DNA of 32,000 nucleotides from Blochmannia endosymbiont of Camponotus modoc (GTDB lineage Bacteria > Pseudomonadota > Gammaproteobacteria > Enterobacterales > Enterobacteriaceae): the NCBI RefSeq assembly GCF_023585785.1, contig NZ_CP097765.1, positions 600,001-632,000 of the forward strand. The letters are read 5' to 3'. Positions 3,363-20,619 of the stretch are shown here, one piece after another. The notes under the pieces were generated by a model. The model saw only the letters and a program-made list of their open reading frames with translations. It was not told the origin of the DNA and did no database searches. Positions within the stretch are counted from its first letter, which is position 1. Every line of letters starts with the position of its first letter. Position numbers and translations under genes: made by a program.

Positions 3363-6173
3363 ATGATTACAATTATAAATAATCCGATAATTTTAGTGGA
3401 TGGATCTTGTTATATACACCGTGCGTATCATGCGTTTCCAGAATTAATCACTAGCGACGGAAAACCGGTGTGGGTAATATATGGAGTAATCAATATGATT
3501 AAAAGTCTATTGATACGATATCAACCTACTCACATGGTGGTTGTTTTTGATGCAATGGGAAAAACCTTTCGTAACAATTTATTTGAAAAATATAAAGCTA
3601 ATCGCATGAAAACCCCCAAGAATTTATATACTCAAATTGATCCATTATGTGAAATAATACAAGCCATGGGGTTACCAATTCTTAAGGTGCCTGACGTAGA
3701 AGCAGATGATGTGATAGGTACATTAGCTATATCTTGTGCGCGATCAGGAAATTCTGTGTTAATTAGTACGGGAGATAAGGATATGGCTCAAATAGTATCA
3801 TCTCAAATAACTCTTATTAATACTATGTCGAATATTATTTTTACTCCTAAAGAAGTAGAAAAACAGTTTGGAGTACCACCAACTCTAATAGCTGATTATT
3901 TAGCATTAATAGGAGATCGTTCTGATAACATTCCTGGAGTGCCTGGAATAGGAAAAAAAACTGCTCAGATTTTATTAAATAAAATAGGTAATTTAAAAGC
4001 ATTATATGATCATTTAGATAAAATTAGTCTATTAAATTTAGATTTACGCGGCGCTAGAGCAATACAAAACACATTACAAGCCAACAAAGAAGTAGCATTT
4101 CTTTCTTATAAACTGACGACTATTAAAACAGATGTATCTTTAAATATATCCGATTATCAACTGTTAATACAACAGATAAATATTAACACTTTGCAATTGT
4201 TATTTACACAGTATGAATTTAAAAATTGGTTAACAGATTTACAGTCAGGAACATGGCTGGATAAATATCACCATTTGAAACATGTACCATCACACCGACG
4301 GTTAAATAATACGCTTTTGTTTCAAAAAAATAATTTATTATCAGATTATTCCAAAGAAAAAAAAATTATCAAAATAATACATAATGTTGAAATGCTTTGT
4401 CATTGGATTGAAAAAATTGACGAATCCAAATTTTTTATATTTAGTATATATACAGATGTATTTAATGTTTCTACAGCCAATATCATAAGTATATGTTTAT
4501 CTATAGATGCTAAAGAAAGTGCGTATATTCCTATAAAAACTGATTCAGTTAATAATCATCAGAATTTTTTATATCTTGAAGAGATATTATCAATTTTGCA
4601 ACCAACTTTAGAAAATGAAAAAATAAAAAAAGTAGGCCAAAATTTAAAATTTAGTTATTCTGTCTTAAAGCGTTATAATATAAACTTAGCTGGCATGGCC
4701 TGTGATGTTATATTAGAATTATATGTACTGTATGGTACCGCTAATTATCATGATATTAAAAATTTTTTAGATAAAGACACATTTAACGCTGTTACGAATT
4801 TTAAAAAAAATTATGATAATTATAATGAAAATAATATAATTTCAGACCTACAAAATATACAATTACAATCTCTACATGCTGCTCAATTTATTAAATCCCT
4901 GTTCAATCTGCATCATACTTTATGGCCAAAGATAGAAGCAAATAATAAACTAAAAAAAATATTTGAAGAAGTAGAAATGCCTCTAATATCTATCCTATCA
5001 CGCATTGAAAGCTATGGCGTATTAATTGATAAAAAACTACTTAATACACATGCGGTAGAATTAGATTATCGGCTTCATGCATTAGAGCTAGAAGCGTATC
5101 AATTAGTAGGCACTCCTTTTAATCTTGCTTCAACTAAACAATTACAAGAAATATTATATAATCAGCAAAAATTGCCAATTTTAAAAAAAACTCCTAAAGG
5201 GGCTCCTTCAACTAATGAAGAGGTATTGAAAAAATTGTCAAAAAAATATTCAATGCCAAAAATCATTTTGCAGTATCGTGCTTTATCTAAATTACAATCT
5301 ACTTATATCAACAAATTAATCGCTATGATTAATAAAAAATCAAATAGGGTGCACACCTCATATAATCAAACTAGAACTTCTACAGGACGTCTTTCTTCTA
5401 CTAGTCCTAATTTGCAAAATATTCCAAATAGAAATTACGATGGAAGGAAAATACGTCAGGCTTTTATTGCTCCCAAAAATTTTTTAATTGTAGCGGCTGA
5501 TTATTCCCAAATAGAATTAAGAATTATGGCGCATCTTTCTCAAGATATCGAATTAATCAATGATTTTCTTTCTGAAAAAGATATTCATACTGCAACAGCT
5601 TCTGAAATCTTTGTTACTGCACTACACTCGGTTACTGATGAACAAAGACAACGAGCTAAAACTATTAATTTTGGATTAATTTATGGAATGAGCGCATTTG
5701 GATTAGCGCGTCAATTATCAGTAACATGTAAGGAAGCTCAAAAATATGTAGATCGTTATTTTAATCGTTATCCTGGTGTTATGAAATATATGCAACATAT
5801 TCGAGAGCATGCTAATAAATATGGTTATGTATCTACACTAGACGGACGAAAGTTATATTTACCAGATATTTACTCTGCTAATATTCTTCAAAAAAAAGGC
5901 GCTGAAAGAGCAGCGATTAATGCTCCTATGCAAGGGAGCGCTGCTGACATTATTAAGAAAGCAATGATATCTATTGATAATTGGTTACAAAAAGATGAAA
6001 TTCCAGCGCGTATCATTATGCAAGTACATGACGAATTAGTATTTGAAGTACACAATGATATTGTAGACCCTGTTGTAAAAAAAATTAAAAAATTAATGGA
6101 AGAATGTTTTATTATGGATGTACCACTAAAAGTAGATGTTGGTATTGGAAAGAATTGGGAGCAAGCACACTAA
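3363..6173 (+). CDS. polA: DNA polymerase I (5'-nuclease and polymerase domains intact; 3'-5' exonuclease motifs degenerate)
   Basis: 936 aa. 5'-nuclease motifs are present (LVDGSCYIHRAYHAF, GDKDMAQ). So are polymerase motif A (ADYSQIELRIMAHLS), motif B (RQRAKTINFGLIYGMSAFGL) and motif C (QVHDELVFEV), and the C-terminus NWEQAH matches E. coli NWDQAH. The Exo I/II/III motifs are not conserved (see findings). Confidence 0.97.
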   Translation: MITIINNPIILVDGSCYIHRAYHAFPELITSDGKPVWVIYGVINMIKSLLIRYQPTHMVVVFDAMGKTFRNNLFEKYKANRMKTPKNLYTQIDPLCEIIQAMGLPILKVPDVEADDVIGTLAISCARSGNSVLISTGDKDMAQIVSSQITLINTMSNIIFTPKEVEKQFGVPPTLIADYLALIGDRSDNIPGVPGIGKKTAQILLNKIGNLKALYDHLDKISLLNLDLRGARAIQNTLQANKEVAFLSYKLTTIKTDVSLNISDYQLLIQQININTLQLLFTQYEFKNWLTDLQSGTWLDKYHHLKHVPSHRRLNNTLLFQKNNLLSDYSKEKKIIKIIHNVEMLCHWIEKIDESKFFIFSIYTDVFNVSTANIISICLSIDAKESAYIPIKTDSVNNHQNFLYLEEILSILQPTLENEKIKKVGQNLKFSYSVLKRYNINLAGMACDVILELYVLYGTANYHDIKNFLDKDTFNAVTNFKKNYDNYNENNIISDLQNIQLQSLHAAQFIKSLFNLHHTLWPKIEANNKLKKIFEEVEMPLISILSRIESYGVLIDKKLLNTHAVELDYRLHALELEAYQLVGTPFNLASTKQLQEILYNQQKLPILKKTPKGAPSTNEEVLKKLSKKYSMPKIILQYRALSKLQSTYINKLIAMINKKSNRVHTSYNQTRTSTGRLSSTSPNLQNIPNRNYDGRKIRQAFIAPKNFLIVAADYSQIELRIMAHLSQDIELINDFLSEKDIHTATASEIFVTALHSVTDEQRQRAKTINFGLIYGMSAFGLARQLSVTCKEAQKYVDRYFNRYPGVMKYMQHIREHANKYGYVSTLDGRKLYLPDIYSANILQKKGAERAAINAPMQGSAADIIKKAMISIDNWLQKDEIPARIIMQVHDELVFEVHNDIVDPVVKKIKKLMEECFIMDVPLKVDVGIGKNWEQAH

Positions 6174-8530: not shown

Positions 8531-9277
8531 ATTTATACTCTCAGCTATTATATATCATATGATGATAATATTACTAAATAATGCGCTACAAAATACCATC
8601 TACTAAGGCTCTTGTGATTAACATTTTTCAAAACTTTATTTAATCAACATATTTGCATTGACATAATTACCAATGTTACATATGCATGTAATGCATTGAA
8701 TCAGATCTATTGATCTTTTATTAAAATTTAATTTTTAAAAATAACACTCATATCTTATATTACTATTATTTTAATAAATAATCTAATGTAATAAAAATAA
8801 AAAATACTTGTATGTATAACTATTATTAATCATTTTTTAATTATTTTTAATTCAACATAGAAAAAATGTCAGAAATTTAATTGTGCTAATATTTTTGTAT
8901 TATATACATCATGAATACCATGAGGTGTAATCGCACATACACATTTTTGTATAAATTTAAAAAATTAATAATCTTATACGAGTTATTATTTTGTTGATGT
9001 ATATCATGCAAAATGAACTTACATTACAAGTATCATTAGCCACATTAAAAATAGTTTGAGGACTTATACAATACATTATTTGTGGTAGGCTGTTACTTCT
9101 ATAAACAAGAAATTATACACATTATATCAATACTACAGATTTACATCAAAAGATGCAACAATCTTCAATTTTAATAAATTTTTTAATTTTTATTATTTTA
9201 AAGAGACTGTTGCTCCTGAATATCAATTTCATGGATCAAGCAATACTAATTTTTTTGATTGCATATGTAGTTGGTAT

Positions 9278-9469
9278 TTATTTTTTAGTAATTAAGTCTT
9301 CTTCTATTTCTCTGAGAGCAAGTACGGTATATTTATCATTATTATTTTTTGTAATCAACGTTTCTTTTCCACCAATTTGCATTTGCCGTGCACGTCGCGC
9401 GGCAACTAATATTAAATCAAATATATTACCAACTTTTTCTACAGCATCCTGTACAGTTATACGTGCCAT
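9278..9469 (-). CDS. rpoZ: RNA polymerase omega subunit (short form, 63 aa)
   Basis: [36 protein letters not shown] is near-identical to the E. coli RpoZ N-terminus. It lies directly downstream of gmk, as in the E. coli gmk-rpoZ operon. It lacks the roughly 28-aa acidic C-terminal tail of the 91-aa E. coli protein. Confidence 0.9.
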
Positions 9470-9570
9470 TTTTATTTACCGTGTATGTAGACTGTATTTA
9501 TTAGTTTAATTAAATTTATATTGATCGCAAACACACATACATATTTATGTATTTATATTTAATTTATTAT

Positions 9571-10481: not shown

Positions 10482-10922
10482 TTATCTTGCCATATTATTT
10501 TTTTGTTGTATTTCAAGTAAATTGCATACTTCTCTAAAGCTTTTAAGTTGTACATCAGACAAAAGGGAAAATATGCGATCTAAAATGATGTTATGTGTAT
10601 CTTCAGCAATACGTAATTTATCACGTCCTTTTTCTGTAATATAAACGTATTTTACTCTACGATCTGTCAGACTTTGTTGTCGACGTAACATTTCATCTTT
10701 TTCTAATGCATCAAGAACTGTTACAACGGTTCTTGATGAAAACCCCATGTAATTTTTAATGTCTGTTGCGCTGGTTTTTCCGGTAGTAATAAGATGCAAG
10801 ATTTTCATTTTAGACATTGAAAGACCTTCATTAATTAATTGGCCATTTATTTCCTTGCGTAAACGATGATAAATACGAGATAAGGATTCTACCATGTTTG
10901 AAATATCTGTTAATCTATTCAT
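10482..10922 (-). CDS. MarR/SlyA-family winged-helix transcriptional regulator
   Basis: 146 aa. The central segment ...MSKMKILHLITTGKTSATDIKNYMGFSSRTVVTVLDALEKDEMLRRQQSLTDRRVKYVYITEKGRDKL has the MarR layout: an HTH, then a wing carrying the DRR motif, then a helix. I do not recognise a specific ortholog. It occupies the interval where E. coli K-12 has dinD-yicG-ligB. Confidence 0.75.
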   Translation of the reverse strand: MNRLTDISNMVESLSRIYHRLRKEINGQLINEGLSMSKMKILHLITTGKTSATDIKNYMGFSSRTVVTVLDALEKDEMLRRQQSLTDRRVKYVYITEKGRDKLRIAEDTHNIILDRIFSLLSDVQLKSFREVCNLLEIQQKNNMAR

Positions 10923-15201: not shown

Positions 15202-15292
15202 ATGATATTGAAGATGATTTAATTTTATTTATACTAACAAAAACTAACAGTTTTTGTTAGTATAAATAAAATTAAATCATCTTCAATATCAT
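15202..15292. repeat. Perfect inverted repeat with 44-bp arms and a 3-nt spacer (91-nt palindromic element)
   Basis: I checked it base by base. Positions 15202-15245 are the exact reverse complement of 15249-15292, giving 44/44 pairs with loop AAC at 15246-15248. The element lies in the divergent coaBC / rpmB spacer and starts 13 nt upstream of coaBC ATG 15189. Confidence 0.97.
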
Positions 15293-15652
15293 TGAATTTC
15301 AGAAAATCTGCAATTACATTGTGCGCAGCATAAAAATCTTATATAATATACCTTAGCCCATTATATATAAAGTAAAAATATATGGGAACATATATAAATA
15401 ATAATAAAAACAAAAATTTAACAACTTAAATCTATTATATTTAGACATATTTGGTGCTATATGAATGTTTAAAATTGTTAATTTTCTTGCGTTTAATAGT
15501 GAAAAATAAAACAACAAATAACAATTATAATATTTTTGGAAATCTTATATTAGGTATTTTAAATAATGTCAAATCTCATAGATTAAAAATCGGAATAAAC
15601 AAAAAATTGTTTTTATTGTTTTGATTATAAATAATTATTCAAACAAAAATTA

Positions 15653-15658
15653 GAGGAG
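15653..15658 (+). promoter_or_regulatory. Shine-Dalgarno sequence of rpmB
   Basis: GAGGAG lies 5 nt upstream of ATG 15664. Confidence 0.6.
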
Positions 15659-15663
15659 AACAT

Positions 15664-16082: not shown

Positions 16083-16109
16083 ATAAAGAAAAGATGCAAA
16101 TTCAACGGC

Positions 16110-16165
16110 ATACTACATAAGCCCCACAGCTCAATATGCATTGAGCTGTGGGGCTTATGTAGTAT
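16110..16165. terminator. Long perfect hairpin between convergent rpmG and coaD (candidate bidirectional terminator / RNA 3'-end stabiliser)
   Basis: Positions 16110-16135 pair perfectly with 16140-16165: 26 bp, 11 of them G:C, with loop ATGC. The hairpin starts 28 nt after the rpmG stop and ends 137 nt from the coaD stop. No canonical U-tract follows on either strand. Confidence 0.55.
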
Positions 16166-16301
16166 AAATATCTAAAATACTATGCTACTAAGTCTACATT
16201 TAGCAGTTTATGTTCATATGTTTTTATATAGTGTCAACATAAAAAAATTAAGTCTACACGTATAATATAACTCTTCAAATTTTCGAGTTTTGATTTTTTA
16301 G

Positions 16302-18805: not shown

Positions 18806-19988
18806 ATAATATCCCAAAATAATCAGTTATTACATTCATAATGATTAATTTAATCATTTTACATGCATTTAACTATATATCAATATCGCTATGTTTTATA
18901 TAATATATTTTAATAGTCGATATTTATATAAATTTTAAAAAATAATTTATCTGAAAAATTATCTATGTTTCTGCTATTTTTAACAATTATGCTTATAGAG
19001 TATTTTTTTATTTTAAATTAAAAAATAATGAATTCTCATAAATATCCTTTAAAAATTAAACATTGTATTGTATACGATAAAACCATTAATTACTGATTTA
19101 ACATTTTTTGAATAATTTAAATAAATTGTTAATTATGACAATAATTAATGATTAGACAATACTTATAAAAACGATATTTATAACAAATAAATTATAAAAA
19201 CTATAAAATCTGATTAATTTTTATATAACTAAAAACTTAAATTAATCATCCAAACAAACACACATAATATAAGCATATTATTTTTTACATTAATAATTTA
19301 TATTAAAATTAATTATATTACAATATTCACAAATGTGAAAATCTTATAATTTTGTTGGTATAAATAAAATTTATTTATTCAAACTTATAAAAATATATAA
19401 AAATTTATTTTACAAATATATACATGCATCATGTATATAATTATTTTTAATATTAAATAATAATTTAGATGCACAACATAAATAATATTTTTAAAAATCA
19501 AATAATAAGATTAAATTGGAGTATGTACTGTATTCTTTTAGTTTTATCATAATTTATCTATTTCCACCGTAACGTAATGATAGACAACCGGACTACTCAT
19601 TCAGAATTAAATTATGTTAAAAACGATTTTTATTTCTGTAGCTTTAAATATTTTGAAGAATTTATTTTTTCTATGTTAAATATATTTACATTTCGATTTT
19701 AAATTATAAGAAATAATCTATATTAATATCATATAACTATGTATAATGAAATACATATTTCCAATATTGTTTACTGCATTATATTATACATAGATCTTTT
19801 CTGATGCAGTATAAAAGTATGATTACTACGTGTATAATATTTTTTAGTATTGCTGCATAATTACCAGTTACTATATTAATTTTTTTAGATATTATATATA
19901 AATTACGTGTAAAATAAATGTTAATTACTTTATCGGATTTGATTGCAAATTCATGTTATTATATTTCTAATTATATCTTATTATTTTG

Positions 19989-20016
19989 TTTATGCTGATA
20001 AAATTTTATCAGCATA
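19989..20016. repeat. 28-bp perfect palindrome (14-bp arms, no spacer)
   Basis: TTATGCTGATAAAA / TTTTATCAGCATAA; every position 19989-20002 pairs with 20016-20003. It sits in the 1.8-kb gene-free waaA / waaC spacer. Confidence 0.9.
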
Positions 20017-20619
20017 ATAAAACAGTCAATTTATTCGTAAAAAATGAATTTTTAGTAAAATTTCAACAATAAAATTAACAGTATCATGTATTTTAATTGT
20101 AATTTTTTCAAAAAAATAATAAAAATATATTTTTATTTAATCGAAAAATTAATATTTATTATTATTTGAAAGTTTTAATTTTCCTTAAATAATATTAAAT
20201 AGTTAAAATAACAAATACGCACAATGAAAATGTTCAAAAATTTAATATTTGAGAATTATATTCAAGTTTTATACCGATATAATTGTAAGAATATGCTAAT
20301 ACTAACATGATGAAGAAATTTTGGTGTTGTTTGTAAAACAAGCATTCATTCATTAATTAGATCTAATAATTTGAAGTAGTTTATAATTGAATGTTAAATG
20401 ATATTAATTTAAAAATATTGATATTCATCAATAAACAATATAATTTTTTTAGATATTATTCCTTTTATAAGAATACAATTATTTACTTTTAAACCATATA
20501 AACACTATCGTTCCTAACGGGTAGATATCTTTTTATTTATCAAAAAAAAATATCAATTTATAATTAAAGAATTAAAATTAATATAAGGTTTATATGAACA
20601 AGTTTAAGAAAAATGTTTT

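Follow-up and report, generated by a model that had tools for sequence, protein, structure and literature searches.

A full-length DNA polymerase I with an erased 3'-5' exonuclease site and a retained exonuclease-like domain in Blochmannia

The window analysed here is a stretch of 32,000 nucleotides (approximately 27% G+C) from the 790,674-bp genome of the Blochmannia endosymbiont of Camponotus modoc (contig NZ_CP097765.1, positions 600,001 to 632,000). It carries polA, which encodes a full-length DNA polymerase I (Pol I; protein PolA) identical, by exact sequence look-up, to URJ26197.1, annotated as 'DNA polymerase I' in the same endosymbiont. The protein consists of a 5'-3' nuclease domain of the flap endonuclease (FEN) type, a linker, a 3'-5' exonuclease-like (exo) domain and a polymerase domain (Table 1). 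An earlier reading of the letters alone (the sequence-only reading) had described the 5'-nuclease motifs and polymerase motifs A, B and C as intact, and the comparison bears this out. The acidic residues of the 5' nuclease are D13, D63, E113, D115, D116, D138, D140, D185 and D188, and none of them varies among the 28 Blochmannia and five free-living sequences. Motif A (D713 and E718), motif B (K766, F770 and Y774) and motif C (H889, D890 and E891) of the polymerase are invariant in the 28 Blochmannia sequences and their free-living relatives, as are R676, N853 and Q857. The protein shares 96% identity with that of B. camponoti and 63–90% with 26 other Blochmannia-clade proteins; the closest sequences outside Blochmannia are from Sodalis and Pectobacterium (about 55%). 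The dsbA-polA-yihA/engB-glnA neighbourhood, the orthologous Enterobacterales context, is present in the window and in four other Blochmannia genomes. By domain content, catalytic motifs and gene context, the window PolA is the Pol I ortholog.

The exo domain differs from the two domains that flank it in having lost its catalytic residues. In the Klenow fragment of Escherichia coli Pol I, D355, E357, D424 and D501 serve as ligands of the two catalytic metals, and the water that attacks is placed by Y497; a single substitution at D355, D424 or D501 abolishes exonuclease activity. phmmer aligned the window PolA with the Klenow-fragment chains 1d8y and 1kln (E-value 1e-195, about 50% identity to E. 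coli Klenow), pairing FIFSIYTDVFN with FAFDTETDSLD of E. coli in Exo I, QNLKFS with QNLKYD in Exo II and HAAQFIKSLFNLH with YAAEDADVTLQLH in Exo III. With the chain numbering of 1d8y (a D355A/E357A mutant), S361, Y363, S431, H505 and F509 occupy the positions of D355, E357, D424, Y497 and D501. The same register was obtained in a 36-sequence MAFFT alignment and in hmmalign runs, so three methods agree. The window PolA thus has neither the four metal-binding carboxylates nor the Exo III tyrosine of an active DEDDy exonuclease. What it has is the arrangement of a proofreading-deficient Pol I, an exo-like domain between 5' nuclease and polymerase with the DEDDy ligands substituted. As the four carboxylate ligands and the catalytic tyrosine are all replaced, the two-metal site cannot form, and we infer from the sequence that the enzyme lacks 3'-5' exonuclease activity.

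These substitutions are the ones that the sequence-only reading had picked out by eye, and the positions it gave for the five codons are correct; the Exo I peptide begins at 4434 rather than at 4437. Its ungapped alignment to Klenow holds for the register of each motif but not for the domain as a whole, since HMMER places one-residue gaps between the motifs. In the profile alignment that it had proposed as a check (hmmalign), no Asp or Glu was restored at the metal-ligand columns.

Table 1. Coordinates of polA, its domains and exonuclease motif remnants, and of two intergenic spacers (window positions).
Feature	Position	Strand	Remarks
polA, full-length DNA polymerase I	3363..6173	+	uninterrupted open reading frame, 936 amino acids plus stop; PF02739, PF01367, PF01612 and PF00476 all matched
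5'-3' nuclease (FEN-like) domain, residues 9-272	3387..4178	+	PF02739 177.6 bits, PF01367 96.6 bits
Inter-domain linker, 5' nuclease to exo-like domain, residues 301-335	4263..4367	+	near-neutral evolution
Vestigial 3'-5' exonuclease (DEDDy/DnaQ-like) domain, residues 336-525	4368..4937	+	PF01612 32.7 bits; fold predicted to be kept, catalytic site gone
Exo I remnant FIFSIYTDVFN	4434..4466	+	S361 for D355, Y363 for E357
S361 codon AGT	4443-4445	+	E. coli D355 position
Y363 codon TAT	4449-4451	+	E. coli E357 position
Exo II remnant QNLKFS	4638..4655	+	S431 for D424; Q and N (E. coli Q419/N420) retained
S431 codon AGT	4653-4655	+	E. coli D424 position
Exo III remnant HAAQFIKSLFNLH	4875..4913	+	H505 for Y497, F509 for D501
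H505 codon CAT	4875-4877	+	E. coli Y497 position
F509 codon TTT	4887-4889	+	E. coli D501 position
Polymerase domain, residues 526-936	4938..6170	+	PF00476 510.7 bits
coaBC-rpmB spacer	15202..15663		462 bp, 19% G+C, stop-codon rich; upstream of rpmB-rpmG
rpmG-coaD spacer	16083..16301		about 220 bp

The five catalytic columns, read in order as DEDYD, provide a baseline against which the loss can be judged. A pattern scan of species-representative genomes with universal motifs yielded 80 polA loci from gamma- and betaproteobacteria, an arbitrary set, and DEDYD is found in every PolA of this set with a complete exo domain (78 of 78). Among the best 120 matches to the window PolA, 82 of the 93 non-Blochmannia proteins carry it. 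The window PolA keeps none of the five columns (0/5), and the erased site is far from what chance would give. Proofreading could in principle persist through a shifted register or through alternative acids, as the exo domain does contain conserved acidic residues (D365, equivalent to E. coli D359, and D448/E452) and the B. ocreatus protein (P0010) has an Asp at the E357 column. A shifted register was rejected because the three alignment methods concur. D365 and D448/E452 are equally conserved in enzymes with the normal DEDD set and are thus not substitutes, the five columns are invariant in the complete proteobacterial sequences, and Klenow is inactivated by the single substitutions named above. 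We regard retained proofreading as very improbable. Smaller still, and in our view negligible, is the chance of an artefact, that is, a polA pseudogene or substitutions introduced by sequencing or assembly errors. The same pattern occurs in independently sequenced genomes, the 936-codon reading frame is uninterrupted, the GenBank protein is identical and all three domains are under purifying selection.

Within the Blochmannia clade, all four carboxylates are missing in 27 of the 28 PolA sequences (63–96% identity to the window PolA), the exception being the B. ocreatus protein with its one Asp. The loss would therefore predate the sampled Blochmannia radiation. All named free-living relatives keep the site, including free-living Sodalis, Acerihabitans and Pectobacterium, so that the comparison with related endosymbionts and free-living Enterobacterales, which the sequence-only reading had called for, places the loss clade-wide in Blochmannia. 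The former catalytic columns are drifting. Four of the five show 5–7 residue types among the 28 Blochmannia sequences and lie between the 54th and 81st entropy percentile within the exo domain, with 7 residue types at the Y497 column; the D501 column holds L or F only (28th percentile). Among strains more than 95% identical, the columns flip between Y and H and between S and C. C. modoc symbionts read SYSHF at the five columns, B. pennsylvanicus and B. chromaiodes both read SHSYF, and B. camponoti reads CHSHF.

The domain around the erased site has been retained. Ratios of nonsynonymous to synonymous substitution rates (dN/dS) were calculated by the pairwise Nei-Gojobori method between the window polA and four other Blochmannia genomes. 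They are 0.14–0.31 for the exo segment, 0.02–0.14 for the polymerase, 0.12–0.19 for the 5' nuclease and 0.34–1.13 for the linker; the contrast between exo and polymerase segments is the comparison that the sequence-only reading had suggested making. Amino acid identity in the linker is 54–94% among close Blochmannia and 6–11% to deep Blochmannia and free-living relatives. Neutral decay of the entire exo domain was considered and rejected, as its dN/dS is well below 1, and these ratios indicate that the domain is still under purifying selection. Measured against the polymerase domain, it nevertheless changes about 1.7 times faster than its counterpart in free-living relatives does: the exo/polymerase ratio of amino acid divergence is 2.0–2.6 for pairs with Blochmannia and 1.2–1.35 between free-living relatives, with 1.5–1.8 for pairs with Sodalis symbionts bearing single DEDD substitutions. 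The PF01612 score (cut-off 23.6 bits) is 32.7 bits for the window PolA, as compared with 144 for Pectobacterium, 136 for free-living Sodalis, 85 for Sodalis sp. Ffu (reduced) and 24 for B. floridanus.

The RNase H-like exonuclease fold is thus still recognised by its family profile, and it is also predicted by an AlphaFold2 model of residues 330–936 (mean predicted local distance difference test score 84.9; means over 10-residue blocks of the exo domain mostly 81–95). Foldseek matched this model best to the Klenow fragment (template modelling (TM) score 0.82–0.84), then to the Bst large fragment (TM 0.73–0.81). A model built from an alignment of homologs leans to the family fold, so the match supports but does not prove that the fold is kept, as the sequence-only reading had proposed.

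A retained domain without a catalytic site might have been repurposed as a non-catalytic module that binds single-stranded DNA or a partner protein. Besides the low dN/dS, 17 of the 190 exo columns are invariant in Blochmannia, and three of these (L412, N418 and Y457) are fixed to residues that differ from those of free-living relatives. The Q and N of the QNLKF motif, which are substrate contacts in Klenow, are largely kept across the alignment. However, the invariant columns amount to 9% of the exo domain as against 45% of the polymerase domain (187 of 411), 13 of the 17 carry the residue of the compared free-living relatives, and the exo-domain analysis identified no partner and no new motif. 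We consider a binding module improbable and favour a structural part of the Klenow-like module, held by purifying selection, as the likely reason for retention.

The 11 exceptions among the best 120 matches are Sodalis-allied symbionts, metagenome-assembled genomes (MAGs) labelled Sodalis sp. and other contigs; six of them are named (MAGs labelled Sodalis sp., Sodalis sp. Ffu and the Sodalis-like symbiont of Philaenus spumarius). Their damaged motifs include NEDYD, DENYD, NENYN and DADYD. Ten Sodalis-allied or MAG proteins (P0030, P0032, P0035, P0039, P0041, P0042, P0043, P0050, P0053 and P0055) have one to four DEDD substitutions each, mostly D-to-N, E-to-K or E-to-A, and look like early stages of the decay found in Blochmannia. 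With the profile of the exo domain as query, a word-indexed search for homologs yielded four fragments only. An exhaustive search of the Blochmannia exo profile against 1.84 billion cluster representatives found about 25 further representatives with substituted carboxylates. Among these are Candidatus Aschnera chinzeii (DKIYD), Candidatus Dasytiphilus stammeri (NHSL-) and Pantoea sp. Edef (HEQ). Buchnera aphidicola of Hormaphis cornu has F, E and N at the first three DEDD positions, and a Fibrobacter MAG is a non-symbiont case. Among the enterobacterial relatives sampled, replaced catalytic residues came to light in insect symbionts only. The sample of symbionts is opportunistic, modest and non-systematic, and within it the cases suggest a graded series of Pol I decay.

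In the Aschnera (P0214, 612 residues) and Dasytiphilus (P0224, 601 residues) proteins the exo-profile match begins at residue 6–8, so both seem to be without the 5' nuclease domain. In Buchnera of Hormaphis cornu (P0132/P0279/P0281), polA is annotated in two partial pieces (681 and 231 residues), with a 912-residue version in another assembly; this symbiont may have been caught between a full-length polA and the state in which only the 5' nuclease remains. Elsewhere, 16 of 18 Buchnera keep only the 5'-nuclease part, with the whole Klenow portion deleted, and no polA could be identified in 29 of 81 endosymbionts (PMC6403173).

The changes that come first in the younger symbionts typically turn D into N and E into K, each through a single G-to-A mutation. 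These early steps suggest AT-biased mutation together with relaxed selection as the cause of loss. One may also suppose that the loss was adaptive, the unedited Pol I serving as a lesion-bypassing, mismatch-extending polymerase in a genome presumed to lack specialised translesion polymerases. The Pol I of Helicobacter pylori, without the same carboxylates, bypasses lesions and adds to mutagenesis, and such a role has been proposed there (PMC3121766). A 2026 survey also allows that exo inactivation may serve error-prone repair (PMC12926913). The loss is, moreover, fixed clade-wide in Blochmannia, and the site was lost independently in several symbiont lineages. Yet the former catalytic positions drift freely and do not converge on particular residues, the first steps are those expected from G-to-A pressure, and many Buchnera later drop the Klenow part altogether (PMC6403173), as would be expected of something dispensable more than of something with a new role. 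On this balance an adaptive loss is unlikely, and relaxed selection and drift under AT-biased mutation would most likely account for the erased site, given the wandering positions, the match of the first steps to mutation pressure and the deletion of the whole Klenow part in related lineages.

The window PolA is best grouped with the Pol I enzymes that lack proofreading by nature, namely Taq, Bst, H. pylori Pol I and mycobacterial Pol1. The closest assayed analogue is H. pylori Pol I (HP1470), which lacks D355, D424 and D501 but keeps the domain, shows no 3'-5' exonuclease activity in vitro and is able to extend mismatches and to bypass lesions (PMC3121766). Like the window PolA, it is a full-length enzyme of a small genome, with the exo fold kept and the carboxylates gone; its 5' nuclease is essential and its polymerase active (PMC3121766). 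The two differ in that H. pylori is a pathogen from another class, capable of living freely, and in that its deficiency was demonstrated biochemically, whereas that of Blochmannia is deduced from the sequence, and in that Blochmannia has all five DEDDy positions replaced, including E357 and Y497. Bacillus subtilis Pol I also lacks proofreading (PMC3121766).

Taq and Bst Pol I share with the Blochmannia enzyme a vestigial exo domain, replaced metal ligands and a Klenow-like fold, and they do not proofread; Bst fragments are strong structural matches to the window model. The loss of the exo site in the Taq and Bst lineages is ancient and phylum-wide, and the Taq domain is shortened. Unlike these, the Blochmannia loss is a recent departure within an order whose free-living members keep DEDDy, and the protein is much closer to E. 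coli Klenow (in sequence identity and as its top structural match) than to Taq or Bst. The sequence-only reading had predicted a Taq-like Pol I with no proofreading; with DEDDy abolished, the domain kept, the other sites intact and the match to H. pylori, this is the natural expectation for the enzyme.

Mycobacterial Pol1, whose structure 6vdd is among the structural matches to the window model, lacks proofreading as well. It is described as a FEN/EXO plus POL enzyme in a paper where the word 'vestigial' occurs 20 times (PMC7102940), and it differs from the window PolA in being actinobacterial, of a phylum-wide inactive class according to the survey (PMC12926913), with no link to symbiosis. 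Buchnera aphidicola is likewise an enterobacterial insect endosymbiont in which Pol I functions beyond the 5' nuclease became dispensable (PMC6403173), but most Buchnera have deleted the Klenow portion, whereas Blochmannia keeps a conserved polymerase and an exo-like domain predicted to fold. The best sequence and structure matches are the engineered exo-minus Klenow enzymes (D355A/E357A, 1d8y; D355A, 1kln), which share the fold and are altered at the same positions. Their point mutations were made in the laboratory and leave the site otherwise intact; in Blochmannia the divergence is natural and takes in all catalytic positions and a large part of the cleft.

Around polA, the window contains in order ubiD, dsbA, polA, yihA/engB, glnA, rpoZ, gmk, a MarR-like gene, yicC, dut, coaBC, rpmB, rpmG, coaD, waaA, waaC, waaF, hldD, a rhodanese gene, grxC, secB, gpsA, cysE, pfkA, tpiA and fpr; scans for tRNA and Rfam features found none in it. 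The coaBC-rpmB spacer, the radC/yicR position of the E. coli gene order, contains no recognisable radC remnant. The rpmG-coaD spacer, the mutM position in E. coli, is too short at about 220 bp to hold mutM. Inspection of the two spacers thus agrees with the sequence-only reading that both genes are absent from their ancestral positions. Little can be read from the absence of radC, which has ceased to be counted among genuine repair genes. Camponotus Blochmannia lack mutM and retain mutY (PMC4389277). The sequence-only reading had further tied the loss of Pol I editing to an erosion of replication and repair fidelity and an AT mutational bias. The absence of mutM and radC stands, but a contribution of lost Pol I editing to the AT bias is not supported: the G-to-A first steps suggest the reverse, and AT pressure is more plausibly a cause than a result of the loss. 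A lagging-strand mutator effect in E. coli is no evidence for a compositional bias. The observation made by the sequence-only reading is therefore confirmed, and its interpretation partly supported.

Four further observations concern other genes of the window. rpoZ is short (63 amino acids, 9278-9469, minus strand; TIGR00690, 86 bits). Opposite to it lies a 118-residue reading frame (9153-9509, plus strand) with no family match, which is probably an antisense shadow and not a gene. The 1.8-kb stretch between waaA and waaC (18818-20619) has no reading frame of at least 70 residues; judging by the E. coli gene order, it may hold the remains of deleted lipopolysaccharide core genes. The MarR-family reading frame (10482-10922, minus strand, 146 residues) has matches to the SlyA, MprA and FabT models, all with scores far under the respective cut-offs. 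A MarR-like transcription factor kept in so reduced a genome may merit attention.

Taken together, the data suggest that the Pol I of Blochmannia is a working 5' nuclease and polymerase around a dead, vestigial DEDDy shell, that the site was lost before the sampled lineages diverged, by relaxed selection and drift under AT-biased mutation, and that the shell is kept for structural reasons; we put the probability of this reading at roughly 80%. The replaced residues, their distribution across the clade, the pattern of selection and the predicted fold are results of the comparison, while the loss of activity, the structural role and the cause are what we would deduce from them. With an intact and strongly conserved site in both the 5' nuclease and the polymerase, removal of 5' flaps and RNA primers and gap-filling synthesis should continue. 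By analogy with Taq, Bst and H. pylori Pol I, mismatched 3' ends would be extended or abandoned instead of excised. The mutator effect of lost Pol I proofreading in E. coli is modest. With Pol I editing inactivated, E. coli becomes a lagging-strand-biased mutator, and Pol I is estimated to make 1–2% of the lagging strand (as cited in PMC3121766). Since nearly all symbionts are described as retaining dnaQ (PMC3673631), dnaQ-based editing by the replicase is expected to remain in Blochmannia. From the modest lagging-strand share and mutator effect in E. coli, the cost to fidelity in Blochmannia is probably real but modest.

Several points weigh against this reading. The host range behind an ancestral loss is thin, since the deeper Blochmannia-clade sequences are mostly assembly contigs without documented hosts. 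The dN/dS values are only approximate, being pairwise Nei-Gojobori estimates for short domain segments in a genome with about 18% G+C at third codon positions. AlphaFold models are biased towards the family fold when built from homologs, and a purely structural role of the retained exo domain is what we infer. The 2026 survey of more than 3000 genomes, a data set to which Blochmannia genomes belong, finds the DEDDy motif disrupted in about half of the bacterial Pol I orthologs and describes inactivation as largely phylum-specific (Firmicutes, Tenericutes and Actinobacteria) and unrelated to genome size (PMC12926913). An association of the loss with symbiosis would therefore hold only within Enterobacterales.

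Within that order, other insect symbionts would have begun or finished the same decay independently. We tentatively propose, at somewhat less than even odds, that knockout of the Pol I proofreading site is an early and repeatable step of symbiont decay in Enterobacterales. The series may run from an intact DEDDy site through a single D-to-N or E-to-K change, as in Sodalis-allied symbionts, to the stage of Blochmannia, Aschnera and Dasytiphilus, where the site is fully erased but its shell maintained, then to that of most Buchnera, which have lost the Klenow part entirely, and finally to the disappearance of polA altogether. If true, such stepwise decay within Enterobacterales would qualify the conclusion of the survey that inactivation is unrelated to genome size (PMC12926913).

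In the literature searched, which did not reach the genome papers Degnan 2005 and Gil 2003, we found no mention of the loss of the exo site in Blochmannia PolA. The kind of feature is well known; a clear instance within Enterobacterales, a shell maintained by selection and an independent, stepwise loss in several insect symbionts appear to be new. As loss of the exo site is common across bacteria, the result is no surprise and refines annotation and evolutionary history. A polA scored as 'present' in gene tables of Blochmannia overstates the capacity for replication and repair, because at the residue level one of the three activities of Pol I had already gone when the sampled lineages diverged. 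A natural gradation of Pol I decay could be used to examine the contribution of Pol I editing to the fidelity of the lagging strand and to refine models of the raised mutation rate of endosymbionts. It could also be used to test lesion bypass by exo-dead Pol I in genomes without specialised polymerases, where this enzyme might be the sole lesion-tolerant polymerase of the cell.

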